DNA of 64,000 bases from Rhodospirillales bacterium (GCA_020638395.1 JACKIP010000009.1:1462-65461), one strand, 5' to 3'; numbered from the stretch's first letter, positions 1 through 53,202 are shown. Notes: generated by a model not told the origin, from the letters alone. Numbers and translations are program-made.

Positions 1-113
1 TCGCGACCGCTTTTGGCGATCAGGGTCGGGTTGGTGGTGACGCCGTCCAGCAGGCCGGTACTCGCCAGATCCTTGATATCGTTCAGGTCCGAGGTATCTG
101 CAAAAAATTTCAT
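1..113 (-). CDS. tal: transaldolase (short Tal/Fsa family), N-terminal fragment; gene continues beyond window edge
   Basis: Reverse complement of 1-113 reads [37 protein letters not shown], the canonical N-terminus of short transaldolases; start codon complement at 111-113; too short for the ORF track. Confidence 0.6.
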
Positions 114-138
114 GTGTCGTCTTCCGTTCTTTTTGATT

Positions 139-2352
139 ATGCTGGCCTATATGAGCATTCCTGATCTGTTTTTGCAAGAGCGGAAAGTGGTTTCTGTCCT
201 GCCTGCGGCGTATGTCGGCAAGGCATATAGTTATGCGCTGCCGGAAGGGAGTGCGTTGCCGGAGCCGGGAACATTTGTCCGCATTCCCCTTCATAGCCGC
301 ACGGTTTTTGGGGTTGTGTGGGAACAGGAAGATCTTCCCCCGGCAACAGGAGCACTGAAAGAAATTCTGGAAATATATGATCTTCCGCCTCTGAGCGGGT
401 CTCAGCGCAAATTCATTGACCGGCTGGCGGATTATACATTATCGCCGCTGGGAGCGGTGCTGAAGATGACGTTATCTGCTCCGGCCGCGTTCGATTCTGA
501 AAAAGGAATATCTGCCTATCGGGCATTGGCGCAGACAGATATCCCTGAGAAATACCGGCAGGTTATGGCTTTTCTGCAGGGAGGGGAGGCCCGCACAACG
601 GTGCAAATTACGGCGGCAACCGGATGCTCTGCCGGGATGCTGAAAACCATGCTCCGGAATAATTTTCTGGAAAAAATAACGGTGACATCGCCGCCGCCCT
701 GTGAATTCCCCGATCCGGCGCGTGGATATTGCGAGCTATCTCCGGCGCAGGATACGGTCGCGCAGGCTCTGAGCACCAGTGTCAGACAAGCGTCCTATTC
801 CTGCACATTGCTGGACGGGGTCACCGGCTCCGGCAAGACGGAAGTCTATTTTGAAGCCGTCGCAGAAGCGTTAAGACAGGAAAAACAGGTGTTGATTCTG
901 TTGCCTGAGATCGCGCTGTCCAATGCGTTTCTGGACCGGTTTCAGCAACGGTTTGGCTGTGCGCCGGCTTTGTGGCACTCCGCCCTGACTCCTGCCCAGC
1001 GGCGGCACACATGGCGGGGCGTGTGCACGGGACGCACAAAAGTCGTGGTGGGGGCGCGTTCGGCCCTGCATTTGCCGTTCCCGTCACTGGGTGTTCTTAT
1101 CGTTGATGAGGAACATGATCCGGCCTATAAGCAGGAAGAGCAGGTCATTTATCATGCGCGGGATATGGCGGTGCTACGCGCACATCTTGAAAAAATTCCT
1201 ATTATATTGGTCTCCGCCACACCATCTCTGGAGACGATGCAAAATGTCTGGGAAGGACGATATCAGCATCTGGAACTTCCGGCGCGCTTTGGCGGTGCGC
1301 AATTGCCGCAGATTGATATTGTCGATATGCGTGACCACAAACCTCCGGATTCGCGGCATTTTCTGTCTGATATTTTACGAACAGCCCTGCAGGAGGCTCT
1401 TACCCGCAAGGAGCAGGGGCTTTTATTCCTGAATCGCCGCGGATATGCCCCTCTGACCCTGTGCCGCAGTTGCGGGCATCGTTTTGAGTGTCCGCGCTGT
1501 TCGGCATGGCTGACCGAGCATCGGCACAAAAGTATTTTGTGTTGTCACCACTGCGATTACAGCAAGCCTTATCCGGAGGTTTGCCCCGTGTGCGGCGATT
1601 CCGGGAGTCTGGCACCGTGCGGGCCAGGTGTGGAGCGCATTGCCGAGGAAGTGAAGGAATATTTTCCCGACTCGCGCATTGAAGTGCTGGCAAGCGATAT
1701 GAGCGAAAATCATGATGTGCTGAAAGCTGCGCTGACGCGGATCAGAAATCACGAGGTTGACGTTATTATCGGAACCCAGATTATTGCCAAAGGGCACCAT
1801 TTTCCCAAGCTGACCTGTGTCGGGGTGGTTGATGCGGATCTGGGGCTGGAAGGTGGCGATCTGCGGGCAACCGAGAAAACCTATCACTTATTACATCAGG
1901 TTGCCGGACGTGCCGGGCGTGAATCTCTGGAGGCACATGACCCGGGACGGGTGTTTCTGCAAACGTGGATGCCGGATCATCCGGTGATGCAGGCTCTGGC
2001 GGCGGGGGCGCGGGACGGATTTTTGCAGGCAGAAGCGGCCATGCGGGAAGCCGCGCACATGCCCCCCTATAGTCGTCTGAGCGCCTTGATTGTCAGTGGC
2101 ACGCATGAGGCGCAAACTCTGGAGATCGCCCGGCAGATCTCTGCCGTAGCCCCGCAGACGGCGCAGATCAGAGTATTGGGCCCGGCCCCGGCCCCGCTCT
2201 CGAAAATAAGGAATAAATTCCGCTACAGATTGCTGGTCATCGCCGATAAATCCCTGCATATTCAAAAAACCCTGCGGCACTGGCTGGGAGAGGTGAAAGT
2301 TCCCGCCGCCGTTCAGGTTTCGGTCGATATTGATCCCCAGAGTTTTTTGTAG
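139..2352 (+). CDS. priA: primosomal protein N' (PriA helicase)
   Basis: N-terminal [18 protein letters not shown] matches the PriA N-terminus; TGSGKTEVY Walker A, DEEH box, and a C-terminal Cys-rich zinc finger ([17 protein letters not shown]...CCHHCDY...CPVCG). The ORF-track 5' extension to 13 overlaps the divergent tal start; ATG at 139 chosen. Confidence 0.85.
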
Positions 2353-2412
2353 CAAATAGAGGAAGATAACAGTTACAGGCTTCAAGAAGACTGCTATATA
2401 AGGAGGGTGAAA

Positions 2413-3201
2413 ATGCGTAACAGGGCCTCCGTGAATATTTTTCGTACCGATCTTTCGTCTCATATGACCTCATATGATCTGCTGAAAACCTTTGCGATTA
2501 TTCTGATGGTGATCGACCATCTGGGGTTTTTCTTTTTTCCTCACATTGAGGAACTGCGTCTCATCGGGCGGCTCTCTGCACCGATCTGGTTTTTTCTGAT
2601 CGGATATGCCAGGACGCGCAAGCTGGAGCTGCGCCTATGGATCTGGGGCGCGGTTTTGCTGTTTGGCGGGATGTGGATTCGGCAGGGGCACGGGTTTTTG
2701 CCGTTAAATATTCTGTTTGATTTTTTGTTGATCCGCGCCATCCTTGAGGTGGTGATGGCCCGTGCGGTGCGGAATTTCGAAACCTTATTTGGCATGTTCT
2801 GGCTGTTTGCTTTATTGGCCTTGCCGAGTATTTTCTTTCTGGAATATGGAACCTTTGGGGTTCTGTTTGCGATGATGGGATATCTGGCGCGCAACCGCGC
2901 AAACATTCCAACCCTGTCTTCCAAAGATATCAGGATTTTTATCCTTTTAACCACGCTCGCCTATGCGTTGGGCATGTGGCACGAATTCCGCTTCGAGACA
3001 GTAAATGCCGGGTTGATGACGGTTTTGCTGCTGTGTCAAAGCTTTTTACTGTTCTCCTTCAAGCCGGCCGACCTTCCGGTCAAAAACCCGATTGCGAGGC
3101 TGTTGAAATATCCGCTCTTCCTGACCGGCCGCCGGACACTGGAAATTTATGTCGTTCACCTGCTTATTTTTATGTATGTTAAAGCTTATGGCGTTTTTTG
3201 A
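2413..3201 (+). CDS. TraX-family polytopic membrane protein (pilin-acetylase family), paralog 1
   Basis: DLLKTFAIILMVIDHLGFFF matches the TraX signature D(I/L)(I/L)KTxAxxLMVxDH; multiple hydrophobic spans; track start 2407 is GTG, ATG at 2413 has an AGGAGG SD 6 nt upstream; paralogous to 4334-5080. Confidence 0.7.
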   Translation: MRNRASVNIFRTDLSSHMTSYDLLKTFAIILMVIDHLGFFFFPHIEELRLIGRLSAPIWFFLIGYARTRKLELRLWIWGAVLLFGGMWIRQGHGFLPLNILFDFLLIRAILEVVMARAVRNFETLFGMFWLFALLALPSIFFLEYGTFGVLFAMMGYLARNRANIPTLSSKDIRIFILLTTLAYALGMWHEFRFETVNAGLMTVLLLCQSFLLFSFKPADLPVKNPIARLLKYPLFLTGRRTLEIYVVHLLIFMYVKAYGVF

Positions 3202-3207
3202 ATTATT

Positions 3208-3338
3208 GAAGCCTCTGCAAAAGTCCAGAATCGTCATCCTGAGCCGCAGGAGAAGGATTTGGAATTATTGAAAAAGAAGATTCTTCGCTATGCTCAGAAT
3301 GACGGTTTTGTAAAATTGCAACCTTTTGCAGGGGCTTC
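3208..3338. repeat. ~120-bp nested-palindrome intergenic repeat (MITE/RPE-like), copy A
   Basis: Core cGTCATCCTGAGC...GAAGGAT...ATTCTTCGCT..GCTCAGAATGACGg with outer flank gaagcctctgcaaaag/cttttgcaggggcttc; alignable by eye to 23176-23280 (same orientation) and 29852-29972 (inverted); sits between convergent TraX and methyltransferase genes. Confidence 0.7.
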
Positions 3339-4270
3339 TATAGAGGTTTTTTCAAAATTGCGACGCAGGAAATATCCAGATTCAAGCGCTTCGCTTTTTC
3401 CAGACTAATCCCTGTTGCTGGAAATTCGTGAAATTCTTCTATTTCAAAGCCTTTGTTCAAGTACAAATTTTTTACCTCTTCCGGTGATCTCCAGAGAAAG
3501 ATGTGATCCGGAGCCGGGCTATTGACGGGGACGTTTATAAAAGCTCGCCCACCGGGTTTAAGGATCTTATAAATATGTTCAAGTCCTTTTTCAGGGTTTT
3601 CCGTGTGTTCCAGAACTTCGCTACAAATGACACTGTCATACTTGTTTCTTATACCGCTATCTTCCAGAACATCCTGTTCTCTCACATTAATATTTTCCGT
3701 GATGCCCATAGTTTTTAATGACTGTTTGGTCGCGGCCAGACTGGTTGCACTGATATCCCATGCTTCGAGTGCGCCATGACGGTCAGTTAGTGCGGCCAAT
3801 AACAGAAATAAGCCATGACCAGGACCAATATCCAGATGTTGGTAATTATCTGGGTTCATGTGCAAAAATTTAATTGAATATAAACAAAACGCTTTTGCAT
3901 GATTGGGCCAGAAAAATTGAGACATTAGTATGCCATGTACATATTTTCCCATATATTGAGGGTCATCATACACTTTTTCCTTTGCTTCCTGAATGGTGTT
4001 TAAACGGTAGGAATGATGTCTATGGAAATAAAGTTGTTCCTCTTGGAAACGCTCACACATCCATCGGTAATCTGCGAGATAGGATTTAAGGTTGTCTTTT
4101 ATTATTTTTACCGCAAACAGTGCAATTTTTTCTAGTTCCTTAATTTCTTCGTCGGATAATTGTGTGTATCCACGCCGTAGGGCCGTTTCATGTTCTGGCC
4201 ATATTTGAAGCAGATCTGTTGAAAAAGCGCTCAATTGGGGGAAACTCTTTAGAGTATCGATTTTAGTCAT
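3338..4270 (-). CDS. class I SAM-dependent methyltransferase with ~140-aa N-terminal extension
   Basis: Motif I LDIGPGHG, acidic post-I EAWDIS, VLEHTENPEKGLEHIYKILKPGGRAF motif; visibly AT-richer than surrounding housekeeping genes. Confidence 0.8.
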   Translation of the reverse strand: MTKIDTLKSFPQLSAFSTDLLQIWPEHETALRRGYTQLSDEEIKELEKIALFAVKIIKDNLKSYLADYRWMCERFQEEQLYFHRHHSYRLNTIQEAKEKVYDDPQYMGKYVHGILMSQFFWPNHAKAFCLYSIKFLHMNPDNYQHLDIGPGHGLFLLLAALTDRHGALEAWDISATSLAATKQSLKTMGITENINVREQDVLEDSGIRNKYDSVICSEVLEHTENPEKGLEHIYKILKPGGRAFINVPVNSPAPDHIFLWRSPEEVKNLYLNKGFEIEEFHEFPATGISLEKAKRLNLDISCVAILKKPL

Positions 4271-4333
4271 GATATGTAATCTCTGTATTTAAAAAATTAT
4301 ACGGTATTTATCCGGATAGTATATAAACTAAAT

Positions 4334-5080
4334 ATGTACCATAATCTAACAGCTTATACACTTTTGGCAATAACGGTTGTCTCTATGGTTGCGGGGCATG
4401 TGTTTTATTATTTCTATCCAGACGCTCTGTGGTTGCGGATACCGGATAGAATCCTGGTGCCTACTTTTCTTGTACTGATTGGTTATAATGTTGGGCGAAA
4501 ATCTGATTTTTTGATGTGGTTTGGTGCTATTGTCGTCATGGGGACGCACCTTCTCTTGTATCATGATATATGGATAAATGTTCTGGGTACATTTATCCTG
4601 GTGAGGGCCTTGATTGATCCGATAATGTATCTATTGTTACGAAGCAAATTCTGGTTTTGGTTCTTTAGTATTCTTTTCGTGGTGTTGTCGCCTGTCGCCA
4701 ATCATTTTTTTGAATATGGGACGATTGCTTTCACAATGGCAATGGCAGGTTGGATCAACAGAAATAGAGATGAAGCCAAGCATATTGTTGATCCTGACCA
4801 CTATTTTATTTTTGCGACAATTGGTTATATCTTTTTTACACAGGTGGTTTTTCATTTTTCTCAGCTGGAGTTAATGATTATTATCACCGGGACCGCCGTG
4901 ACAATGATTCTTTTGTATGATTTTAGAACACTTTTGATGAATTCTATTCGTCGGCGCCCTCGCGATCTGATTGAAAAAACCGTTAGTTTTATAGGACGAA
5001 AAAGTTTAGAAATATATGTGATCCATGTTGTTTTGTTCGAAATGATTCTTTATGCTGCTCTCCATAGAAGTTTGGGATAA
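4334..5080 (+). CDS. TraX-family polytopic membrane protein, paralog 2
   Basis: Collinear similarity to 2413-3201 (RxxxPxFLxLIGYxxxRK; FEYGTxxFxMxMxGxxxRNR; GR(K/R)(S/T)LEIYV(I/V)H(V/L)); highly hydrophobic; AT-rich. Confidence 0.7.
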   Translation: MYHNLTAYTLLAITVVSMVAGHVFYYFYPDALWLRIPDRILVPTFLVLIGYNVGRKSDFLMWFGAIVVMGTHLLLYHDIWINVLGTFILVRALIDPIMYLLLRSKFWFWFFSILFVVLSPVANHFFEYGTIAFTMAMAGWINRNRDEAKHIVDPDHYFIFATIGYIFFTQVVFHFSQLELMIIITGTAVTMILLYDFRTLLMNSIRRRPRDLIEKTVSFIGRKSLEIYVIHVVLFEMILYAALHRSLG

Positions 5081-5096
5081 TGGATGAGGAGAGGTT

Positions 5097-5330
5097 ATGT
5101 CAGATAAACTCATTGCGCTTTTTGCGGATATTTTAGAGATTTCGGAGGATATGCTTAATGATGAGACATCCCCCAAGAATACGTGGCAATGGGATAGCTT
5201 GACGGCTATGCACTTGATTGCCGCTATCGAGACGACATTTGACGTTCGGTTATCAACTAAGGAAATTGTCAGTATGGACAGCATCGCCAAGGTTCGTGCT
5301 GTGCTGCAGGGAAAAAATATTGATATCTAA
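5097..5330 (+). CDS. acyl carrier protein (stand-alone, FkbJ-like)
   Basis: 77 aa, acidic, phosphopantetheine attachment motif WDSLTAMHLIAAIE (DSL); SD GAGGAGAGG; 18 nt upstream of the FkbH-like gene. Confidence 0.75.
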   Translation: MSDKLIALFADILEISEDMLNDETSPKNTWQWDSLTAMHLIAAIETTFDVRLSTKEIVSMDSIAKVRAVLQGKNIDI

Positions 5331-5347
5331 AAAATCTGGATTCGTAC

Positions 5348-7009
5348 ATGGTTGAAGATGCTGGTTTCAGAATTGGGATTTCAGCCAGTGTAACGGGGGA
5401 TCCTCTGGTTCCTCATCTGCAAAAATATCTGGCTCGGAGGGGTATGAAATCTTCTGGTGTTCAGGTAGCCCCGTTTAACCAGATTCATCAGGTTTGCAGG
5501 CAGCACGAACAAGTGTTTGGCGGTTCCCCGGATATTATTTTTTTATCTTGGAGATTGGAAGACCTTCTGGGGTCTCCTTTATCTGATTGGGAGAAAATTC
5601 ATAAGGTACTGGGCGATTTGGCGGAGTCCGTATCTATTTTACGTCAAAATTTTTCTGGTACGCTCATTGTAACGCTTCCGGCCTGTCCTGTTGATTTTTC
5701 AAACGATCTTCTTTCTGTTACGCCTAATCCTGCATCTGTTTCTGTCGATCATCTTCGAGTGTTCTGGCTGGGCTTGTTAGAGAATAGGGGGAGTATTCAT
5801 CATCTTGATACGCATTCAATTTTACTCAAGATCGGACAGGATCAGGCTTATGACGCCCGGAAATGGTATCTTTATCGGCAACCCTGGAGTGAGCGTTTTT
5901 GGGAGCTTTTGGCCAGACAAGTCGGACGTATCATTTGTCTGCAAACATTACCCGCAAAGAAATGCATTGTTCTGGATGCGGATAATACGTTGTGGGGAGG
6001 GGTTGTTGGAGAAGACGGGTTGTCAGGCATTCATCTAGGGAATGATTTCCCTGGAAGGGTATACAAAGATTTTCAGAAATCTTTATCATTTCTTCAAAAA
6101 AAAGGTATTTTGTTAGCGATAGCCAGCAAGAATAATGAAGCTGATTTTTTTAGTGTACTGGATCAGCATGATGAAATGCTTCTCAAGCGAGAGGATTTTG
6201 TCGCTTTTGAGGTGCATTGGAACTCAAAAGTTGAAAGCCTTAAGAATATTGCCAAAAAATTAAACATTGGTCTTGATTCAATTGTGTTTATTGATGATTC
6301 AGGTAAAGAGATTGGTGAGGTAAAGGAACGGTTGCCAATGGTAACGTGTTTGCAGGTCCCTGAAGAAATTACGGATCTTCCGACTTTTTTACAAACAGAA
6401 GATATATTTGATATGGAAAGTATTACGGAGGAAGATCTTTTGCGGACAAGTCGTATACAGGCAACGGAGCAACGGCAACGCCTTCAGGAGGTTTTGTCCG
6501 AAGATGATTATAAATTGTCGCTTAATTTACAGATGTCTGTATTTCAGATGCAGGATCAGCATGTGCAGCGCATTGTGCAATTAATTAATAAAACGAACCA
6601 ATTCAATCTGACAACTATACGGCGCTCTCAGGAAGAAATTCAAGCTTTGGTCGCCTCTGGAAAGTATATTATTGTAGGGATGACTCTTGAGGATAAGTAT
6701 GGCGACTATGGGTTGGTGGGAGTTGCAATTGTTAAAAAAGAACACAATATCGGCATCATCGATACTTTTTTGATGAGTTGTCGGGTTTTGGGCCGAGATG
6801 CAGAAGTTGCCTTTTTAACGGCATTGGCAAATATCTCTCAGACTTACGGGTGCGAGTTTCTGCGTGGATACTATGTACGGACACTTAAAAATGAGATGGT
6901 TTCCAATTTCTATCAAAAACAGGGGTTTTCTTCTGTTGGTGATTTCTGGCAGGCTTCTTGTGAGGATATTAAGGCATTACAGCACATTGTTGACGTTAAA
7001 ATCATTTAG
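5348..7009 (+). CDS. FkbH-like protein: HAD-IIIC phosphatase domain plus C-terminal GNAT-like acyltransferase domain (putative glyceryl-ACP forming enzyme)
   Basis: HAD motif I VLDADNTLWGGVVGEDG, motif III LAIASKNNE, motif IV FIDDS; C-terminal ~220 aa acyltransferase-like (IIVGMTLEDKYGDYGLVGVAIV...CRVLGRDAE); family pairing with a preceding dedicated ACP as in FkbH/FkbJ. Confidence 0.75.
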   Translation: MVEDAGFRIGISASVTGDPLVPHLQKYLARRGMKSSGVQVAPFNQIHQVCRQHEQVFGGSPDIIFLSWRLEDLLGSPLSDWEKIHKVLGDLAESVSILRQNFSGTLIVTLPACPVDFSNDLLSVTPNPASVSVDHLRVFWLGLLENRGSIHHLDTHSILLKIGQDQAYDARKWYLYRQPWSERFWELLARQVGRIICLQTLPAKKCIVLDADNTLWGGVVGEDGLSGIHLGNDFPGRVYKDFQKSLSFLQKKGILLAIASKNNEADFFSVLDQHDEMLLKREDFVAFEVHWNSKVESLKNIAKKLNIGLDSIVFIDDSGKEIGEVKERLPMVTCLQVPEEITDLPTFLQTEDIFDMESITEEDLLRTSRIQATEQRQRLQEVLSEDDYKLSLNLQMSVFQMQDQHVQRIVQLINKTNQFNLTTIRRSQEEIQALVASGKYIIVGMTLEDKYGDYGLVGVAIVKKEHNIGIIDTFLMSCRVLGRDAEVAFLTALANISQTYGCEFLRGYYVRTLKNEMVSNFYQKQGFSSVGDFWQASCEDIKALQHIVDVKII

Positions 7010-7013
7010 CCTC

Positions 7014-7988
7014 TTAACTATCCACCGCCGAGAACCCGGTTTTGCGGTGGAAGTTATGGTGGGCTTCGATGCGGCGGATGGTGCCGGATTTCGAGCGCAT
7101 GACGATGGAGTGGGTGACGGCTCCGCCGGGGAAGCGCCGCACGCCTTTGAGCATGGGGCCGTCTGTGACGCCTGTTGCCGCGAACATGACGTTTCCGGGG
7201 GCGGCCATATCGTCCTGGGTGTAAATTCTTTTTAGGTCGCGAATGCCCCATTTTTCCGCGCGGGCGATCTCGTCATTATTCCGGAAGACCAGACGCCCCA
7301 GCATTTGCCCGCCGGTGCATTGCAGAGCTGCCGCCGCCAGCACGCCTTCGGGCGCACCGCCGGTGCCGACATACAGGTCAATACCGCTCTCCGCCTCGGC
7401 GCAGGCAATCACCGCACTGACATCGCCATCTGAAATCAGGCAAATGCGCGCTCCGGCCTGGCGCACCTGCGTTATCAGGTCTTCATGGCGGGGCCGGTCA
7501 AGAATGCAAACGTTCAAATCCTTGACCTGCCCGCCTTTTTCAGCGGCAAGTTTTTGCAAAATATCGGCAAGCGGCGCGTCCAGATCGAGGATATTTTTTG
7601 AAAAACCGGGGCCGACGGCGATTTTTTCCATATAGGTGTCCGGCGCATTCAGAAAGCCCCCTTCATCGGCCATCGCAACGACCGCCAGAGCATTGGGGCC
7701 GCCTCTGGCCACGATAGAGGTCCCTTCCAGAGGATCAAGGGCGATGTCAATCCGGGGGCCTTTGCCGAGTCCGACTTCCTCACCGATATATAGCATGGGG
7801 GCTTCGTCACGTTCCCCTTCGCCGATGACGACCCGCCCCTGAATATACAGGGAATTGAAGGCTTCGCGCATGGCTTCCACGGCGGCATGATCGGCGGCTT
7901 TTTCATCGCCGCACCCCACCAGTTTTGATGCGGCCAGAGCCGCCGCTTCCGTCACGCGCACGACTTCCAGCGCCAGATTCCGGTCCAT
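7014..7988 (-). CDS. glpX: fructose-1,6-bisphosphatase class II (GlpX)
   Basis: MDRNLALEVVRVTEAAALAASKLVGCGDEKAADHAAVEAMR...VIGEGERDEAPMLYIGEEVG aligns residue-for-residue with GlpX from its N-terminus; track ORF extends 19 aa further to 8045 (alternative start). Confidence 0.85.
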   Translation of the reverse strand: MDRNLALEVVRVTEAAALAASKLVGCGDEKAADHAAVEAMREAFNSLYIQGRVVIGEGERDEAPMLYIGEEVGLGKGPRIDIALDPLEGTSIVARGGPNALAVVAMADEGGFLNAPDTYMEKIAVGPGFSKNILDLDAPLADILQKLAAEKGGQVKDLNVCILDRPRHEDLITQVRQAGARICLISDGDVSAVIACAEAESGIDLYVGTGGAPEGVLAAAALQCTGGQMLGRLVFRNNDEIARAEKWGIRDLKRIYTQDDMAAPGNVMFAATGVTDGPMLKGVRRFPGGAVTHSIVMRSKSGTIRRIEAHHNFHRKTGFSAVDS

Positions 7989-8048
7989 AGAAAATTTTTC
8001 TATGTCAAATGGAGGGGTGGGAGCGGTGAAGGGGATGTGGATCATGAT

Positions 8049-8804
8049 CTATTTTTTGCTGGAAGTTACTTTTTCTGAAATGCCTTTGAGCAAATCCATC
8101 GGGAAGGGAAGCACAATCGTGCTGCCCTTGGCATTGACGAAATCATTCAAAGTACCGAGATAGCGCAACTGCATTGTCTCCGGGCGGTTGGCCAGAATGG
8201 CCGCCGCTTCGTCCAGCTGCTTGGCGGCCTGAAATTCCCCTTCGGCATTGATGATCTTGGCGCGGCGCTCCCGCTCGGCTTCGGCCTGCTTGGCAATGGC
8301 GCGGATCATAGAGGGGTCAATATCGACCTGTTTAATCTCAACATTGGTGACCTTGATTCCCCAGCCTTCGGCCTGATGATCCAGCAATTCCTGCAGGTCG
8401 TGGTTCAACTGGTCGCGGTTGGACAGCATGTCATCCAGCTCGTGTTTCCCCAGAACAGAGCGCAGGGTCGTCTGTGCCAGCTGGGCGGTTGCGTACAGAA
8501 AATCCTCCACCGCGTTGATCGCATTGCCCGGATCGACCACCCGGTAATAGACAACGGCGCTGACCCGGACGGATACGTTATCGCGGGAGATCACATCCTG
8601 CGCGGGGACGTCTTCGGTGCGCACGCGCATATCAACCTTGGTCATCTGCTGGAGTCCGGGGACGATCAGGCGCAGACCGGGCTTCACGATACCGGTAAAT
8701 TTCCCCAGAGTATAAATCACGCCGCGCTCATATTCCTTGATGATTTTGACGCAGGCAAAAAGAAAAATCCCCAGCAGAATCAGAACGGGAACAATAAACG
8801 GCAT
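8049..8804 (-). CDS. SPFH/band-7 (stomatin/HflC-like) membrane protein
   Basis: N-terminal TM helix then IIKEYERGVIYTLGKF...VDMRVRT...DNVSVRVSAVVYYRVVDP, typical slipin/QmcA pattern; coiled-coil EAERERRAKIINAEGE. Confidence 0.8.
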   Translation of the reverse strand: MPFIVPVLILLGIFLFACVKIIKEYERGVIYTLGKFTGIVKPGLRLIVPGLQQMTKVDMRVRTEDVPAQDVISRDNVSVRVSAVVYYRVVDPGNAINAVEDFLYATAQLAQTTLRSVLGKHELDDMLSNRDQLNHDLQELLDHQAEGWGIKVTNVEIKQVDIDPSMIRAIAKQAEAERERRAKIINAEGEFQAAKQLDEAAAILANRPETMQLRYLGTLNDFVNAKGSTIVLPFPMDLLKGISEKVTSSKK

Positions 8805-8888
8805 AATTCAATCTCCTTTTTATAAATCGGCTTTATAAGTGGTATTGGTATGTAAATATGGACAGTGTGCGTTCAAATCTTCATGTCT

Positions 8889-8921
8889 CCGTCATTACAC
8901 GCACAAGGCGTGTGATGACGG
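8889..8921. repeat. REP-like hairpin, copy 1 (ccgtcatTACACGCacaagGCGTGTGAtgacgg)
   Basis: Near-perfect 14-bp stem with 5-nt loop; same CACACGC-ACAAG-GCGTGTG core at 23330-23360 and 27187-27217; intergenic. Confidence 0.65.
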
Positions 8922-9128
8922 GATTTGGAGATGTCTCTATCTATTTCTACTTCCCAATGTTTTATAAACAGCCTGTTCATCTAAACATATTTTATTCGCT
9001 CTGAACAGGGACCTTTCCTGATTTTATCCTCAAGAAAAACTTGAATTTCTCCGATGCTTTGTGGCATGATGGGTTCAAATTATTTTTGGATATGGAAATT
9101 AAGCTTTCAAAAAAATTAAGAGGGATGA

Positions 9129-10043
9129 ATGTCATCAAAGAAAGTCACAGCTCGGCGTATTGACAAAATTTTAACGCAAATGCAGTACGCTTCTGATCGT
9201 CTTAAGCAGGGTGGGTTGAATACCACACTGAAAGCCGCTTTTTGGGAGGCAACTCAAGGATGTGAAGGGGAGCAATTTTTTGACTCCTTTTTCAAGTATG
9301 CATCCCCGATGTTGCAACAGCGTCTGACAATGGAAATGCCCCAAAAAGAGATGATACCAGAGCAGCGTCGCTTTATAGGTTATTATTTACATGATAAGCC
9401 TGAGTTATTAGAAGCCGTGAGAGCATATGAGGATGACGAACATGTCGATCTTTCAGAAGATCATGCCAGAGCTCTGGCTGAAGAGCTTACCGATCTTAAG
9501 AAAAAGGATGGCACGGGTTCATATGTTATTGTATCAGCGTTTAAGTCGGCTACAATTCAAAAAATGATGCCTTTTTTTCCCAAAGAAATGCAAGCGGAAA
9601 TCGGAAGTGATTTGGAACGTCTGAAAAAGACAGATGCTTACGTAGCTTTTTCTGATGCATTAACTCATGCATTTGGAGATCCTCTTGGCAAACAACAGCG
9701 GATTCTTGCATTGCTTCTCCTTTCTTCTAAGAAAGGCGAGCTGATGGTCAAAGGTGATGAACTTTTGCATCAACTGGCTGTGACAAGATATTTTGTAGAG
9801 GATATTGATAGTAATTTACGAAACCTATTAAGTGGGCAGGACTTATCCGAAGACCTTGAGCTTGCTCTTATGGATCTTGAGAGTATAAAAAAGGGGGTAT
9901 CGAAAGCGATCAAGATACTTTCTGATGAATATCAGATACCTGATGGCATTCTGCGCATAACAGCAGAAAAGGATGCGCAGTCTCCTAATGGAGGCTGTGA
10001 GCATTTGTACCGCCTCCCCGATGACTTTATGCCATCACGATAA
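9129..10043 (+). CDS. hypothetical protein (304 aa, acidic, no recognisable domain)
   Basis: Clean ORF with ATG start, AT-richer than neighbours, no signal peptide or TM; no family recognised. Confidence 0.4.
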   Translation: MSSKKVTARRIDKILTQMQYASDRLKQGGLNTTLKAAFWEATQGCEGEQFFDSFFKYASPMLQQRLTMEMPQKEMIPEQRRFIGYYLHDKPELLEAVRAYEDDEHVDLSEDHARALAEELTDLKKKDGTGSYVIVSAFKSATIQKMMPFFPKEMQAEIGSDLERLKKTDAYVAFSDALTHAFGDPLGKQQRILALLLLSSKKGELMVKGDELLHQLAVTRYFVEDIDSNLRNLLSGQDLSEDLELALMDLESIKKGVSKAIKILSDEYQIPDGILRITAEKDAQSPNGGCEHLYRLPDDFMPSR

Positions 10044-10084
10044 TCCATCCTCGACTTTTCCGGGGGGAGCCCCTAGAATAGCGC

Positions 10085-11455
10085 ATGGTCAAATCGTCTC
10101 GTCTTTCCTATGTGTGCCAGAATTGCGGTGCGGTGTCTTCCCGCTGGGCGGGCAAGTGCGATTCCTGCGGGGCATGGAACAGTTTGCTTGAAGAGGCCTC
10201 GGATGCGGTCGTTCCCAAAGGATTGAGCGTGGTCGGCAACGGCAAGGGGCGCGGCGGCAAACTTGAAATTCATGACCTGCAAAGCCAGAGCGAAATTTTG
10301 CCGCGGGAAAAAACCGGAATTGGCGAGCTGGACCGCGTCACCGGCGGCGGACTGGTGCGCGGCGCGGCGATGCTGATCGGCGGAGATCCGGGGATCGGGA
10401 AATCGACTCTGCTGCTACAGGCCGTGTGCGCGTTGGCCCGGCAGGGGAAGGCCTGCCTGTATGTCTCCGGCGAGGAGGCGGTCGATCAAATCCGCATGCG
10501 GGCGGGGCGGCTGGGGCTGGCGGATGTGAATATTGCGCTGGCGGCGTCTTCCAGCGTCCGCGATATTCTGAGTGCAATGGACGGGGCGATTGATCTGGTG
10601 GTCATTGATTCGATCCAGACCATGTTTGTCGATAATATTGATAGCGCCCCCGGAACGGTGACGCAGGTGCGGACGTCGGCTCTGGAATTGATCCGGACCG
10701 CCAAGAAAAAGAATATCATTCTGTTTCTGGTCGGGCATGTGACCAAGGACGGTCAGATTGCCGGTCCTCGCGTTCTGGAGCATATGGTGGATACGGTGTT
10801 ATATTTTGAAGGTGACCGCGGGCACCAGTTCCGGATTTTGCGCGCCGTTAAAAACCGTTTCGGCCCAACCGACGAAATCGGCGTGTTTGAAATGGCGGAG
10901 AAGGGGCTGGAAGAGGTTGCTAATCCGTCGGCGCTGTTTTTATCCCAGAAACAGGAAAATATTCCCGGAAATGCGGTCTTTGCCGGTATGGAAGGAACCC
11001 GCCCGGTTCTGGTCGAAGTGCAGGGACTTGCAGCCTCAACCGCTTATGGAACGCCGCGCCGCGCTGTGGTGGGTTGGGACTCCGGGCGGCTGGCGATGAT
11101 TTTGGCAGTGCTGGAGGCGCGGGTCGGGCTGAATTTTTCCGGCTATGATGTGTTTTTGAATATGGCCGGTGGCATTCGCGTATCCGAACCGGCGGCGGAT
11201 CTGGCGGTGGCGGCGGCCCTGATGAGCGCGCTGTCCAATAAAACATTTCCGGCAAATACGATCTTTTTTGGAGAGGTCGGGTTGAGCGGCGAGGTGCGTG
11301 CCGCTCCGCAAACCGATCTGCGTCTTAAGGAGGCAGAAAAGCTGGGATTTAAAATGGCGGTTCTTCCGCAGAATTCCAAAATTAAATCCTCCGGCGGGCT
11401 GCGGCTGGAAAAAGTCCGGCACGTGCAGGATCTGGCGGCATTGCTTGCGGTGTAA
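10085..11455 (+). CDS. radA: DNA repair protein RadA/Sms
   Basis: N-terminal zinc finger CQNCGAVSSRWAGKCDSCGAWNS, Walker A GGDPGIGKSTLLLQ, RadA-specific KNRFG motif (VKNRFGPTDEIGVFEM), Lon-like C-terminal domain. Confidence 0.9.
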   Translation: MVKSSRLSYVCQNCGAVSSRWAGKCDSCGAWNSLLEEASDAVVPKGLSVVGNGKGRGGKLEIHDLQSQSEILPREKTGIGELDRVTGGGLVRGAAMLIGGDPGIGKSTLLLQAVCALARQGKACLYVSGEEAVDQIRMRAGRLGLADVNIALAASSSVRDILSAMDGAIDLVVIDSIQTMFVDNIDSAPGTVTQVRTSALELIRTAKKKNIILFLVGHVTKDGQIAGPRVLEHMVDTVLYFEGDRGHQFRILRAVKNRFGPTDEIGVFEMAEKGLEEVANPSALFLSQKQENIPGNAVFAGMEGTRPVLVEVQGLAASTAYGTPRRAVVGWDSGRLAMILAVLEARVGLNFSGYDVFLNMAGGIRVSEPAADLAVAAALMSALSNKTFPANTIFFGEVGLSGEVRAAPQTDLRLKEAEKLGFKMAVLPQNSKIKSSGGLRLEKVRHVQDLAALLAV

Positions 11456-11499
11456 ATTGCCGTTTGGCAGGGGAATTAATTCCTGTAAACTTTCCCTGT

Positions 11500-13572
11500 A
11501 TGGTCATACGATTCACATTATTTGTTTTGTTCTGCTGTAGTGGAATTATGGCACAGGCGGCGGAGCCCCGGACTTTTTATGGTGTTCGCGGGCTGAATAC
11601 GGTTCCGGATGCGCGGGCGGACGAGACGGGGCGGGTTCATCTGACCCTCTCCCGCATGGGTCGCTATACGCACGGGATTTTGGGGGCGCAAATGAGCGAT
11701 CATGTCTATGTTGCTGTGCGCCAGAGTGCGGAGGCAGATCATTTGTTCGAAGAGCCGGAGCGTCTGTATCCCGGACTTGATACCAAACTTCAGTTGTGGG
11801 ATGAAACAGCGTTCCGTCCGGCGGCGGCGCTGGGGTTACAATCTGCTTTCGGGCATAAGCGCATGGCCGGGGAATATCTGGCCCTGTCGAAGCGCTGGAA
11901 TGAATTTGACGCAACGCTTGGCATGGGATGGGGGCGCTTCGGGCAGGCCGGACATTTCAAAAATCCGTTTGGCCTGATTTCTCATTTTGATAAAAACCGT
12001 CCGATGGAAGATGAAACGGCCAATGATCCCTCCGACTGGTTCACGGGAGAGCGGGTCGGAGTTTTTGCCGGACTATCCTATGAGCTGCCGGTGAAGGGAT
12101 TAGTTCTGACCGCGGACTGGAACGCGGACCGGTATCAGGCCGAGCGCGCCGCGACCGGAAATTTTCAGGCCCCGGCCCCGTGGAGTCTCGGGGTGCAATA
12201 TCAGCCTTCTGACTCTTTCAGTGCCGGGATCGGGGTGATGGGCGGAGATCAGGTCATGGGACGGATGACCCTGTCTCCCAATGTTGCGGACTGGCCCTGG
12301 CGGGCTGCTAAGAAGAGAGCTCTCCCACCTGTTACAACCGAGCGTCCGGCAGTCGGAAAAATCGAGGACATTTCGGTCGAGGCCCGCGATGATGGGCAGA
12401 TTCTTGAAATTGTCGCGGCGGACGGGGCTGTGCTGGACACCGTTTTGTCTGTGGAAGATTCTGTCTCTGCGCCGGCCCAGTACGGACGAGCGGTGCGCCA
12501 TATGATGCGGCAGGCCCCTCCGGAGGTCACAACTTTCCGGATTTTCCCGCATTTTGCCGGGTTGCAGGGGGCGCGGCTGAGCCTGATCCGTCGTGATCTG
12601 GAGCAGGCTTTGGGGGCTCATGCGGGGAGCGCGGACGAGATCTGGCAAAGCGCGGAGTTTGACCGTCATCTGGTCCGGCTGCCATATAAAGGAATAAATG
12701 CCCATAATCTGTGGCCGGATCATATTATCCTGCAGCAACAGGTGAGTCTGTCGGAGGAAGATCAGGGTGTGCTGTCCCGGACCGGATTGATTATAGAGGA
12801 GCAGCGGGCGGCATCAGGACCATGGGCGGTGGGGGGGGCGCTAAGGCTTAATCTGGGGGATAATCTGCAAAATCTGAATGCGGCCCGCGGGCGGCCTTTC
12901 CTTCCGGTGCGCAGCGATATTGATCTGTTTGCGCGGCAAACCGTCTCGCTTGACCGTATGTATTTGTCTTATCTGAAAACGCTCTGGCCGGATGTTCATG
13001 TCGGGGCGACGGTAGGGTATCTGGAGGAGCAATATGCCGGGGCGGGGGGCGAGCTTCTCTATCGTCCCTTTGGCAGAAACTGGGCGATTGGCGCGGAAGC
13101 ATGGGGGGTCTTTAAGCGGAACCCGCTGACAGCGTTTAATCAGGGAATTGGCGTCGATCATCTTCTGAGTGGTCATGTGCAGGGATGGTACCGACTGCCA
13201 CAACATCCGGAAACAACTGTGCATGTGCGGTTGGGACGCTATCTGGCAGAAGATCTTGGAGGCACTCTGGGGCTTGTGCACCGTTTTAAGAACGGGGCAA
13301 AGCTGGAGGGATTTGTTACCATGACCGATCAGAGTGATACGGATGTGTTCGGCGGAACAACCCACTTGCAGCACGGGGTGAAACTCTCTTTGCCGCTGGG
13401 AAGCCTGGATTATATTCCTGATAAAAGCCGGATGGATCTGGTAGTCGCTCCGTTTGGGAGAGACTCCGGGCAACATCTTGATAAACCTGTTTCTTTATAT
13501 GATCTGACCGAAGCTTTTTCTTTGCAGCATGTGGCGACGCATTGGGGTGATCTGGTTGGAGCAGAAAATTAG
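11500..13572 (+). CDS. YjbH/GfcD-family outer-membrane exopolysaccharide protein
   Basis: Signal peptide (FTLFVLFCCSGIMAQA/AEP); blocks matching E. coli YjbH: GMGWGRFGQAGHFKNPF, GGAGGELLYRPFGRNWAIGAEAWGV, GGTLGLVHRFKNGAKLEGFVTMTD; track start 11464 is TTG, ATG at 11500 used. Confidence 0.75.
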   Translation: MVIRFTLFVLFCCSGIMAQAAEPRTFYGVRGLNTVPDARADETGRVHLTLSRMGRYTHGILGAQMSDHVYVAVRQSAEADHLFEEPERLYPGLDTKLQLWDETAFRPAAALGLQSAFGHKRMAGEYLALSKRWNEFDATLGMGWGRFGQAGHFKNPFGLISHFDKNRPMEDETANDPSDWFTGERVGVFAGLSYELPVKGLVLTADWNADRYQAERAATGNFQAPAPWSLGVQYQPSDSFSAGIGVMGGDQVMGRMTLSPNVADWPWRAAKKRALPPVTTERPAVGKIEDISVEARDDGQILEIVAADGAVLDTVLSVEDSVSAPAQYGRAVRHMMRQAPPEVTTFRIFPHFAGLQGARLSLIRRDLEQALGAHAGSADEIWQSAEFDRHLVRLPYKGINAHNLWPDHIILQQQVSLSEEDQGVLSRTGLIIEEQRAASGPWAVGGALRLNLGDNLQNLNAARGRPFLPVRSDIDLFARQTVSLDRMYLSYLKTLWPDVHVGATVGYLEEQYAGAGGELLYRPFGRNWAIGAEAWGVFKRNPLTAFNQGIGVDHLLSGHVQGWYRLPQHPETTVHVRLGRYLAEDLGGTLGLVHRFKNGAKLEGFVTMTDQSDTDVFGGTTHLQHGVKLSLPLGSLDYIPDKSRMDLVVAPFGRDSGQHLDKPVSLYDLTEAFSLQHVATHWGDLVGAEN

Positions 13573-23175: not shown

Positions 23176-23280
23176 TATAGAGCCTTCTGAAAAAGCCAGG
23201 ACTCGTCATCCTGAGCCATAGGCGAAGGATCTTAACGTTTGGAAACAAAAGATTCTTCGCTGCGCTCAGAATGACGGGGG
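23176..23280. repeat. ~120-bp nested-palindrome intergenic repeat, copy B
   Basis: tatagagccttctgaaaaagccaggactcGTCATCCTGAGCcataggcGAAGGATc...AGATTCTTCGCtgcGCTCAGAATGACGg, collinear with copy A; between convergent sucB and purQ. Confidence 0.7.
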
Positions 23281-23329: not shown

Positions 23330-23360
23330 GGATCACACGCACAAGGCATGTGATGACGGC
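23330..23360. repeat. REP-like hairpin, copy 2 (ggatCACACGCacaagGCATGTGatgacgg)
   Basis: Same core as 8889-8921 with one stem mismatch; adjacent to repeat copy B. Confidence 0.6.
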
Positions 23361-29838: not shown

Positions 29839-29851
29839 AATTTTTTTCCTG

Positions 29852-29972
29852 TATAGAAGCCTCTGCAAAAGGTTTATGCCTAATTTTACAAAACCGTCAT
29901 TCTGAGCGGAGCGAAGAATCTTTTGTTTCAATGGGTTAAGATCCTTCGCCTGCGGCTCAGGATGACGATTCT
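29852..29972. repeat. ~120-bp nested-palindrome intergenic repeat, copy C (inverted relative to A and B)
   Basis: tatagaagcctctgcaaaagg...aaaaCCGTCATTCTGAGCggagcGAAGAATCTtttg...AGATCCTTCgcctgcgGCTCAGGATGACGattct; reverse complement of copy A aligns over ~115 nt at roughly 80-85% identity by eye. Confidence 0.7.
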
Positions 29973-30163
29973 ATATTTTTCACCACGAATAAATACGAAG
30001 ACACACCAAGACCTTCCTATTCGTGTCTATTTGTGTTCATTCGTGGTTCATGATGCTTTGTTTGTTTTTGGTACTTTGCGGTGAAAATCCGGGAGGGTGA
30101 CGATGAAAAACGTTATTTCACTTCCCCTGATTTTGCGGTAGAAGGGGAGGAAAGATTATTCTG

Positions 30164-51907: not shown

Positions 51908-52765
51908 TTAAAAACGTCCTGAACGGTAATCGTTCATGGCTTGCTTAATTTCATCTTGTGTATTCATTACAAACGGACCCTGACCTGCAATTGGTTCATC
52001 AATAGGTTCTCCATTCATGATAAGAATGCTCGTATCGCTTATGGCTTTCAAGGATATATAATCTCCTTCCCTTTCAAACAGGACAAGTTCTTTTTCATTT
52101 AGTGTCTCTTCTCCATTAATTTGAACGTTTCCGGATAAAATTAATACATTCGTGGTAAAGCCTTCTGGCAAAGGTAAATCAATTATATGCCCTGTTTTTA
52201 GGCGCATATCCCACAAATTAACAGGCGTGAATGTTTTGGCGGCACCTTTGGTATTCGCGTAATTTCCGGCGATCACTCTAACGGTGCCGCCGTTATCATC
52301 CATCTTCACTACAGGAATTTTGCTATTCAAAATCTCCTGGTAATGTGGGGCGCTCATTTTATCTTTAGCAGGTAGATTAACCCAAAGCTGGATCATTTCC
52401 AAAGTGCCGCCTTTTTTTGTAAAATCTGATCCGTGCATTTCTTCATGAAGAATACCGCGTGCTGCCGTCATCCATTGCACATCACCGGGGCCTATTTTAC
52501 CGAAGTTTCCCGCATTGTCTTTATGCTCAATTTCGCCTTGATACACGATAGTGACAGTTTCAAAACCACGATGCGGGTGTTGCTCTACGCCGCGGGGGTG
52601 ATCAGAGGGCTCAAAATCTGCAGGTCCGGCATAATCAAGCAGTAAAAATGGGCTAATATCGTGTCCTTGTTGGCTATAGGAAAACAGCGTGTTCACAGGA
52701 AAGCCGTTACCAACCCAATGTTGGCCTGTTCCACGATTTATCCGTGCAATTTTTTTAATTTTCAT
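51908..52765 (-). CDS. pirin-family cupin protein
   Basis: N-terminal cupin with metal ligands HPHRGFETVTIVYQGEIEHKD; ATG at 52765 (track 21-codon extension unsupported); divergent from an HxlR regulator, a common arrangement. Confidence 0.85.
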   Translation of the reverse strand: MKIKKIARINRGTGQHWVGNGFPVNTLFSYSQQGHDISPFLLLDYAGPADFEPSDHPRGVEQHPHRGFETVTIVYQGEIEHKDNAGNFGKIGPGDVQWMTAARGILHEEMHGSDFTKKGGTLEMIQLWVNLPAKDKMSAPHYQEILNSKIPVVKMDDNGGTVRVIAGNYANTKGAAKTFTPVNLWDMRLKTGHIIDLPLPEGFTTNVLILSGNVQINGEETLNEKELVLFEREGDYISLKAISDTSILIMNGEPIDEPIAGQGPFVMNTQDEIKQAMNDYRSGRF

Positions 52766-52866
52766 GGCATTTCTCCTTCTTTTTTTGATATTTAAATGAT
52801 AAGTTAATACCATACGGTACTTTTGCAAGTACGCACATAAAGTATACTGATAAAACGAGTGTAATA

Positions 52867-53202
52867 GTGCCTAAAAAAGAATTATTTTGTCCTGTGGAGA
52901 TTACTCTGGATGCATTATCTGGACGATGGAAGGTGCTCATTATCCAGCAACTTCTTGACGGCACAAAGAGATTTAACCAACTGCAACGTGAGCTAAAGGG
53001 AATTACACATCGTACACTCAGTAAACAATTAAAAGAGATGGAAGAGCACGGACTTGTTAATCGCAAAGATTATAAAGAAATACCTCCGCGAGTAGAATAT
53101 AGTTTATCAGAACTTGGAAAATCTCTCGAAAGCGTTCTATCCGCAATGCACAAATGGGGAGAAGCGTACGGTTCTAAAATAACGAGTAAGGAAAAATTGT
53201 AA
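52867..53202 (+). CDS. HxlR-family winged-helix transcriptional regulator
   Basis: CPVEITLDALSGRWKVLIIQQLLDGTKRFNQLQREL...HRTLSKQLKEMEEHGLV is the HxlR/DUF24 signature; GTG start. Confidence 0.8.
   Translation: MPKKELFCPVEITLDALSGRWKVLIIQQLLDGTKRFNQLQRELKGITHRTLSKQLKEMEEHGLVNRKDYKEIPPRVEYSLSELGKSLESVLSAMHKWGEAYGSKITSKEKL

Follow-up and report, generated by a model that had tools for sequence, protein, structure and literature searches.

We analysed a 64,000-nt stretch of DNA from the uncultured alphaproteobacterium Rhodospirillales bacterium (GCA_020638395.1 JACKIP010000009.1:1462-65461), here called the window, and found between priA and glpX a cassette of four genes that encode a methyltransferase (MT), a divergent TraX-like membrane protein (TraX2), an acyl carrier protein (ACP) and an FkbH-like protein. 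Based on gene order in relatives and on analogy to characterized systems, we believe there is about an even chance (roughly 0.5) that the cassette carries out carrier-protein-dependent acylation of an extracytoplasmic target, following a logic like that of the Dlt pathway but with a different loading enzyme and a different membrane enzyme. The cassette behaves as a mobile, AT-rich, laterally transferred unit, and a second TraX-like gene next to it, TraX1, is a resident of the host chromosome; we draw this division from the split in GC content at third codon positions (GC3) between them and from the same compositional offset of the cassette in three other loci. The features of this part of the window, with the basis of each call, are:

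13-2352, plus strand: priA (open reading frame (ORF) map, identity by profile search)
2407-3201, with an in-frame ATG at 2413, plus strand: TraX1, 264 aa, TraX family of the TmAT superfamily, priA-linked type (Pfam TraX)
3204-3346, no strand assigned: palindromic repeat resembling a miniature inverted-repeat transposable element (MITE) or a repetitive extragenic palindrome (REP), left edge of the low-GC block (copies and hairpin fold)
3338-4270, minus strand: MT, class I S-adenosylmethionine (SAM)-dependent methyltransferase, 310 aa, whose N-terminal extension is specific to the family (Pfam)
4271-4333, no strand assigned: intergenic region of 63 nt between the divergent MT (minus) and TraX2 (plus), presumed to hold divergent promoters (gene coordinates; inferred)
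4334-5080, plus strand: TraX2, 248 aa, rare divergent TraX-like subfamily (paralogy to TraX1)
5097-5330, plus strand: ACP, 77 aa, with Ser34 within a WDSL motif (Pfam PP-binding)
5348-7009, plus strand: FkbH-like protein, 553 aa, three domains, putative glyceryl-S-ACP synthase (TIGR01686)
7014-8045, minus strand: glpX (ORF map, identity by profile search)

The ORF map contains all five of the genes from TraX1 to FkbH that had been predicted earlier from the sequence, at the coordinates given then. The gaps had been put at 17 nt and 18 nt and are actually 16 nt between TraX2 and ACP and 17 nt between ACP and FkbH. The methyltransferase does lie between the two TraX paralogues, as described, but on the minus strand and divergent from TraX2. 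At the right edge of the block, 4 nt separate the stop codon of FkbH from that of glpX. Because a scan of 2200-7300 for consensus promoters and terminators gave no signal above shuffled expectation, we make no regulatory claim.

The evidence that these genes work together comes mainly from relatives. A contig scan with FkbH as the single query returned two loci only, and a wider locus survey (n=82) consists mostly of more distant FkbH relatives from metagenomes. The relatives that hold the same parts have FkbH proteins 46-50% identical to that of the window. Their gene orders, together with those of four sister loci discussed below, are:

L002 (Alphaproteobacteria metagenome-assembled genome): priA-TraX1-MT-VOC-TraX2-ACP-FkbH-hom
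L009 and L093: MT (minus strand)-TraX2-ACP-FkbH between ilvA and fabD, the exact order of the window at another chromosomal site
L001 (DATJGZ010000300.1): ACP-FkbH-MT-TraX
L095: MT-VOC-alpha-2-macroglobulin-TraX2-like
L011: ACP-FkbH-MT-VOC
L008: ACP-FkbH::MT fusion-VOC (fusion protein P0135, 871 aa)
L010: ACP-FkbH-MBOAT-406 aa-38 aa-MT
L012: 48-aa ORF-MBOAT-413 aa-MT-558 aa-ACP-FkbH-VOC

Full-length orthologues of the window MT stand beside FkbH in L001, L002, L009-L012 and L093, and the four-gene block with low GC3 recurs in at least 3 other alphaproteobacterial contigs. Across the whole survey, FkbH has an ACP as neighbour in 54/82 loci, an MBOAT in 19/82, the phosphopantetheinyl transferase AcpS in 11/82, an orthologous MT in 10/82 and a TraX-like gene in 4/82 (the window, L001, L002 and L009). 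The contig of L001 is labelled 'Patescibacteria group bacterium', which is probably a binning error; it encodes TrcR (PF06242, 189 bits), a transcriptional cell-cycle regulator according to the Pfam description, as well as proteins whose closest matches are alphaproteobacterial. In L095, the gene between MT-VOC and the TraX2-like gene encodes an alpha-2-macroglobulin of 1962 aa (1034-6922), and the contig 5' of MT lies outside the stretch examined.

An orthologous ACP-FkbH-MT core is also found between obg and pepN in other alphaproteobacterial genomes, and the sister loci add two kinds of evidence. L008 carries a natural FkbH::MT fusion (P0135, at 8001-10616), to which the window MT aligns over its full length (residues 559-870, E 4e-42), and the next gene there encodes a Glyoxalase_4 protein resembling methylmalonyl-CoA epimerase. 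The VOC proteins in general have methylmalonyl-CoA epimerase as their best match, a weak one; they occur in L002, L008, L011 and L012 and are absent from the window. In L010 and L012, an MBOAT stands in place of TraX2. The MBOATs of both loci match DltB, an MBOAT that depends on a carrier protein, best in NCBIfam, that of L012 with E 1.8e-31, under the equivalog cut-off. Small ORFs in these two loci (12177-12293 in L010 and 2417-2563 in L012) encode single-helix microproteins of 38-48 aa that end in FIYQGF, and a third DltX-like microprotein is found in L090 (345-476); the endings across these loci are FIYQGF or FVYTGF. A hexapeptide of the FIYQGF type is the acyl-shuttle motif of DltX and is also found fused to PatA-type MBOATs (PMC12148441). 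The pattern F[IVLM]YxxF followed by a stop codon occurs nine times in about 1 Mb of loci, where by a rough estimate chance alone would give about one occurrence. Of these nine, seven come after a hydrophobic stretch: the three microproteins of L010, L012 and L090, and the C-termini of four larger proteins of about 390-510 aa in L013, L039, L065 and L067.

Because these MBOAT sets replace TraX2 in sister loci, two unrelated membrane acyltransferase families share one slot, and we conclude from the gene orders that the DltB-like MBOAT system and the TraX-like protein are alternative occupants of it, beside a single donor module. The loci with microproteins and MBOATs suggest a non-Dlt, carrier-protein-dependent MBOAT pathway in Gram-negative bacteria. 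The 406-413-aa partner of the MBOATs in L010 and L012 has no Pfam or NCBIfam match, and the same is true of a 371-412-aa family found beside other MBOATs; a DltD-like role for both would be a guess.

On the donor side, the window FkbH matches TIGR01686 with 301.6 bits (cut-off 146.65) over profile positions 1-320 of 323, and the HAD-IIIC model TIGR01681 with 74.8 bits. The HAD motifs, namely the DxDxT nucleophile motif (D210, D212 and T214), the Lys of motif III (K294) and the acidic pair of motif IV (D316/D317), are invariant among 25 homologues, and C478 (in MSCRVLGR) is invariant in the 25-sequence alignment. Both the FkbH assignment and the HAD catalytic aspartate of the original prediction are borne out by these matches, as is the dedicated ACP with a DSL motif, which scores 32 bits against Pfam PP-binding and whose motif SP.N..(Q)WDSL.AMHL.AAIE is kept in all related loci. 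An AlphaFold model of FkbH (predicted local distance difference test score, pLDDT, 82.8) shows an N-terminal SGNH-like domain, a HAD-IIIC phosphatase domain and a C-terminal GNAT-like domain. In the homology search, the protein P0121, labelled as coming from a Rhodospirillales metagenome-assembled genome, is 100% identical to the window FkbH. The methyltransferase matches the generic class I SAM enzyme families Methyltransf_11/12/23/25/31 of Pfam, and we looked for a close solved structure and found none.

Enzymes of the FkbH/OzmB type make glyceryl-S-ACP from 1,3-bisphosphoglycerate by way of an intermediate bound covalently to the enzyme (PMC9057759, PMC7489565). We considered roles in making methoxymalonyl-ACP, tetronates or polyketides; these were rejected, since the cassette has no dehydrogenases and no ketosynthases. 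Neither the ORF map nor profile searches found dehydrogenases of the FkbI or FkbK type between priA and glpX, and for that reason methoxymalonyl-ACP is not the product. Judged by its profile matches and gene content, the protein belongs to the FkbH domain family, and the cassette is outside both the methoxymalonyl and the tetronate pathways.

The two TraX-like proteins are true paralogues (28% identity, E 1e-22) that differ in several respects. TraX1 matches the Pfam family TraX (PF05857) with 49 bits (cut-off 25), whereas TraX2 stays under the Pfam cut-offs with 18.8 bits for TraX and 23.6 bits for Acyl_transf_3, and is tied to the TraX family solely via TraX1 and through profile searches. 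TraX2 has nine helices and the shared fold of the transmembrane acyltransferases (TmAT, the Acyl_transf_3 or AT3 clan). The DxxK...DH signature that the original prediction quoted for the family is present in TraX1 as YDLLK...MVIDH (residues D23..K26 and D37-H38), while TraX2 reads T..-...GH, retaining H22 and having lost the Lys by a one-residue deletion; membership by profile likewise stood for TraX1 and not for TraX2. All TraX2-type sequences keep the His of the first transmembrane helix (TMH1), R35 and R39; all share the deletion that removes the TMH1 Lys, and the Asp before the His is gone as well. The equivalent TMH1 Arg is essential in the acyl-CoA users HGSNAT, OafB and OacB (PMC12423673), and in reviews the donor of AT3/TmAT enzymes is acyl-CoA rather than ACP (PMC9558356). 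The loss of the Lys in TraX2 thus fits a change of donor, but it is only a hint. We had taken it as a possible mark of a switch to an ACP donor and downgraded it, since the operonic TraX of L001 has the Lys; for the same reason its loss is not needed for association with an ACP.

A link to the F-pilin acetylase, also part of the original prediction, did not survive. Neither TraX protein is orthologous to that enzyme (TIGR02755, 31.5 bits, cut-off 149; PRK13706, 22.8 bits, cut-off 419), and the flanks are priA and glpX, with no transfer genes. Orthologues of TraX1 lie immediately 3' of priA in L002, L003, L004 and L006, whether FkbH is present or not, and in many alphaproteobacterial genomes such a gene has no FkbH in its vicinity. 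L003 has two TraX1-type genes in tandem, L004 and L006 are Micavibrio-like, and none of these three has FkbH nearby. About 480 TraX1-type proteins were found versus about 20 of the TraX2 type, and the same contrast of a common TraX1 and a rare TraX2 emerged when 1.84 billion representatives were searched exhaustively with profiles. By these syntenies, the priA-linked TraX is an old, conserved chromosomal family, seen across Micavibrio-like and Rhodospirillales-like alphaproteobacteria and unrelated to conjugation. TraX1 may be a partner of the cassette; alternatively it may work on its own, with acyl-CoA as donor. TraX genes syntenic with priA, one or two in number, are often near the atp operon or hom (L003, L004, L006, L094, the window and L002).

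Composition separates the cassette from its surroundings. GC is 0.38-0.45 over 3-7 kb versus 0.55-0.62 in the flanks (windowed GC), and GC3 is 0.38-0.39 in MT, TraX2 and FkbH, 0.61 in TraX1 and 0.59-0.69 in the neighbours. The cassette shows the same downward GC3 offset in L002, L009 and L093, whereas the ACP-FkbH-MT core of the obg-pepN loci is at native GC3, with no downward offset. The AT-richness of the genes from MT to FkbH, noted earlier from the sequence, is confirmed by both measures, and the proposed horizontal acquisition holds for MT through FkbH, with GC3 in four independent hosts behind it. What had been described as a five-gene cluster is reduced to four genes (MT, TraX2, ACP and FkbH), TraX1 being native in composition and a member of the priA-linked family; a single island of all five genes is ruled out by the host-like GC3 of TraX1 and its conserved synteny with priA.

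The MITE-like repeat that had been placed at 3208-3338 is real and maps to 3204-3346 (143 nt), between the convergent TraX1 and MT genes, where it overlaps the final codons of MT. It is one of three copies in the window, the other two being at 23176-23277 and 29848-29980; the copies are about 100-140 nt long and 77-90% alike, with the core GAATCGTCATCCTGAGCC...GAAGGATC...AGATTCTTCGCT..GCTCAGAATGACGG. The copy at 3204 is predicted to fold into a hairpin of -58.8 kcal/mol (z = -6.1).

Taken as a pathway, the cassette could work as follows. FkbH would take 1,3-bisphosphoglycerate, its HAD domain would strip the 3-phosphate, and the glyceryl group would pass via the conserved C478, a putative carrier Cys, to the phosphopantetheine arm of ACP. 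MT would then O-methylate the glyceryl-S-ACP once or twice, and in the relatives that have it the epimerase-like VOC protein could invert C2. TraX2 would take the acyl group from ACP at the cytoplasmic face and hand it over in the periplasm to an acceptor that may be an envelope glycan (peptidoglycan, lipopolysaccharide or periplasmic glucan) or a pilin-like protein. An O-methylated glyceroyl-ACP is the most likely product, because of the cyanobacterial modules that combine FkbH with an O-methyltransferase (OMT) and because of a known modification in Campylobacter jejuni. The original prediction had coupled an FkbH/ACP donor to a TraX-like acyltransferase and a methyltransferase. Comparative evidence strongly supports that coupling, through the recurring gene order, the FkbH::MT fusion and the exchange of TraX2 for an MBOAT with a microprotein; the acyl group and the acceptor are what we infer.

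Somewhat more tentatively, and at a little under even odds, we suggest that TraX2 is the first member of the TmAT/AT3 clan with an ACP donor, and that FkbH-ACP(-MT-epimerase) modules feed a widespread and so far undescribed class of Dlt-like acylation systems of Gram-negative envelopes. In that wider picture, (O-methyl)glyceroyl groups would be joined as esters or amides to a polymer or protein of the envelope, and the enzyme responsible would be TraX-like in some systems and an MBOAT with a DltX-like shuttle in others.

Several observations weigh against such a membrane pathway. The AT3/TmAT enzymes studied so far use acyl-CoA (PMC9558356), and the TraX in the L001 operon belongs to the TraX1 type, which has the Lys. 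L094 has a TraX2-type gene with no FkbH nearby, and conversely no membrane acyltransferase lies near the ACP-FkbH-MT-VOC genes of L008 and L011. The glycerate specificity of the long three-domain FkbH is an extrapolation from the short enzymes of polyketide synthase (PKS) pathways. No acceptor-related gene linked to the cassette was found. Located 4.4 kb downstream is a gene for a YjbH-family protein (11464-13572, plus strand; PF06082, 360 bits), an outer-membrane component in exopolysaccharide biosynthesis; it is a slight pointer to a polysaccharide and has no tie to the cassette.

Some of these points would be explained if ACP, FkbH and MT made (O-methyl)glyceroyl-ACP for a soluble cytoplasmic transferase, for example in the N-acylation of a nucleotide sugar, as is presumed for the di-O-methylglyceroyl-pseudaminic acid of C. 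jejuni, and the TraX-like genes were independent neighbours that depend on acyl-CoA. The core without a membrane acyltransferase in L008 and L011, the TraX-type genes by priA without FkbH nearby in L003, L004, L006 and L094, the acyl-CoA use of AT3 enzymes and the C. jejuni modification, which is already present on the cytidine monophosphate (CMP)-sugar (PMC3068675), all agree with this. This is the principal alternative to our reading; we nevertheless consider it rather unlikely. TraX2-type genes are rare (about 20 clusters) and in most of the contexts seen they head a compact TraX2-ACP-FkbH operon, the swap to a DltB-like MBOAT and DltX-like microprotein in sister loci points to a membrane step, and the cassette encodes no soluble acyltransferase. 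It is also quite unlikely that transmembrane acylation fed by a carrier is right and only the acyl group is not derived from glycerate, with the long SGNH-HAD-GNAT form of FkbH loading some other small acid. The SGNH-like domain is indeed missing from the 366-aa OzmB-type enzymes (PMC9057759), and distant long-form FkbH genes sit with FabH-like, FabG-like and MaoC genes, suggesting other acyl chemistries. Yet the TIGR01686 match is full-length and at twice the cut-off, the invariant phosphatase motifs argue for an acyl donor that bears a phosphate, for instance 1,3-bisphosphoglycerate, and the association with MT and epimerase mirrors known O-methylglycerate systems (PMC13122637, PMC7099621).

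A further proposal, that the cluster makes a novel membrane lipid or a small metabolite, by fatty acylation of the hydroxyls of glyceryl-ACP by the TraX-like proteins or by feeding a polyketide or tetronate pathway, strikes us as very improbable. Two membrane acyltransferase paralogues would suit the two free hydroxyls of glycerate, and it is for its part in polyketide and tetronate pathways that FkbH is chiefly known (PMC7489565), but TraX1 lies outside the cassette, which has no ketosynthase, FabH-like, condensation, thioesterase or FkbI/FkbK genes, and the acceptors to which TmAT and DltB-like MBOAT enzymes transfer their short acyl groups are extracytoplasmic (PMC9558356, PMC12148441). There is, finally, hardly any chance that unrelated genes were thrown together in a compositional island. 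Low GC and the flanking repeat do show recent insertion, but the same gene set is found on at least 4 other contigs, at three chromosomal positions and with 46-59% protein identity, and the FkbH::MT fusion argues against chance. Conservation of the arrangement, which the original prediction had proposed to check, refutes juxtaposition, with the proviso that the conserved unit has four genes and not five.

Compared with known systems, the cassette resembles the Dlt pathway in its plan, in which a small acyl group held as a thioester on a dedicated carrier passes to a polytopic membrane acyltransferase and on to an extracytoplasmic acceptor (PMC12148441, PMC11035591). In contrast to Dlt, the loader here is an FkbH phosphatase/transferase rather than the adenylating DltA, (O-methyl)glyceroyl probably takes the place of D-alanine as the acyl group, the membrane enzyme of the window is a TraX-like TmAT rather than an MBOAT, and the hosts are Gram-negative alphaproteobacteria. 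DltA, an MBOAT, DltX or another acyl-shuttle motif, and DltD or another extracytoplasmic SGNH partner are all absent from the 64-kb window, and because DltA, MBOAT, DltX and DltD are missing the cassette is not a member of the Dlt pathway. With the glyceryl-ACP synthases FkbH and OzmB it shares the FkbH domain, the HAD-IIIC motifs and an adjacent stand-alone ACP (PMC9057759, PMC7489565). It differs from their pathways in the extra N-terminal SGNH-like domain of its FkbH, in having no FkbI/FkbK, FkbG-type O-methyltransferase, PKS or FabH-like partner, and in its housekeeping chromosome context, which is not that of a natural-product cluster.

Also close are modules for O-methylglycerate. The OMT-FkbH-PCP loading modules (PCP, peptidyl carrier protein) of the cyanobacterial suomilide and dysinosin synthetases place O-methylglycerate on a carrier (PMC13122637, PMC6520454). 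In C. jejuni 11168, pseudaminic acid is decorated with 2,3-di-O-methylglyceroyl (PMC3068675), and the glycosylation locus includes the FkbH-domain gene cj1302 and the 'epimerase' gene cj1301; strains in which cj1302 is a pseudogene or cj1301 is missing lack the modification (PMC7099621). FkbH, carrier and methyltransferase are common to these modules, including cj1299-cj1302, and to the cassette, a likeness by gene content (PMC13122637, PMC6520454, PMC3068675, PMC7099621), and an 'epimerase' as in C. jejuni also occurs in the relatives L002, L008, L011 and L012. The probable product would be shared too, an O-methylated glyceroyl group that serves to decorate another molecule. The difference is in delivery, since those modules deliver in the cytoplasm, to a nonribosomal peptide synthetase chain or a nucleotide sugar, whereas the sole candidate transferase of the cassette is a membrane TmAT. 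With TraX and the AT3/TmAT enzymes (OafA/B, OatA, OpgC and HGSNAT), the membrane protein shares the polytopic fold, the TMH1 His, conserved Arg residues and transfer of short acyl groups across the membrane (PMC12423673, PMC9558356). TraX2 departs from them in missing the TMH1 Lys/Arg and in sharing an operon with an ACP, while known members use acyl-CoA; the window has neither an F-type TraX orthologue nor tra genes.

According to reviews, Dlt is the only pathway among the MBOAT/SGNH envelope-acylation systems that uses a carrier protein (PMC9558356, PMC12148441), and our literature search found no description of an FkbH-ACP pair coupled to TraX/AT3 or to an MBOAT. There appears, from comparative genomics, to be a second carrier-protein route in Gram-negative bacteria, primed by FkbH and feeding two unrelated membrane acyltransferase families. 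If true, this would mean a new donor class for TmAT enzymes, it would predict an O-methylglyceroyl modification of the envelope, so far seen only on Campylobacter flagellin glycans, and it would open TraX-like proteins outside conjugation to genetic study. Being small and fully defined, the cassette lends itself to a direct test in vitro.

The window contains other regions of cassette-like composition. A second low-GC island (8750-10050, GC 0.39-0.42, GC3 0.37) lies between an SPFH/Band-7 gene and radA and holds an ORF of 304 aa (9129-10043, plus strand) with no match in Pfam or NCBIfam. A 28-nt sequence 5' of this ORF (8894-8921) is 93% identical to one at 23332-23359, beside a copy of the palindromic repeat. 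At 51908-53202, a pirin gene (minus strand) and a divergent gene for an HxlR-type regulator (plus strand) have GC3 of 0.37 and 0.31, similar to that of the cassette, and this pair is probably another acquired islet.

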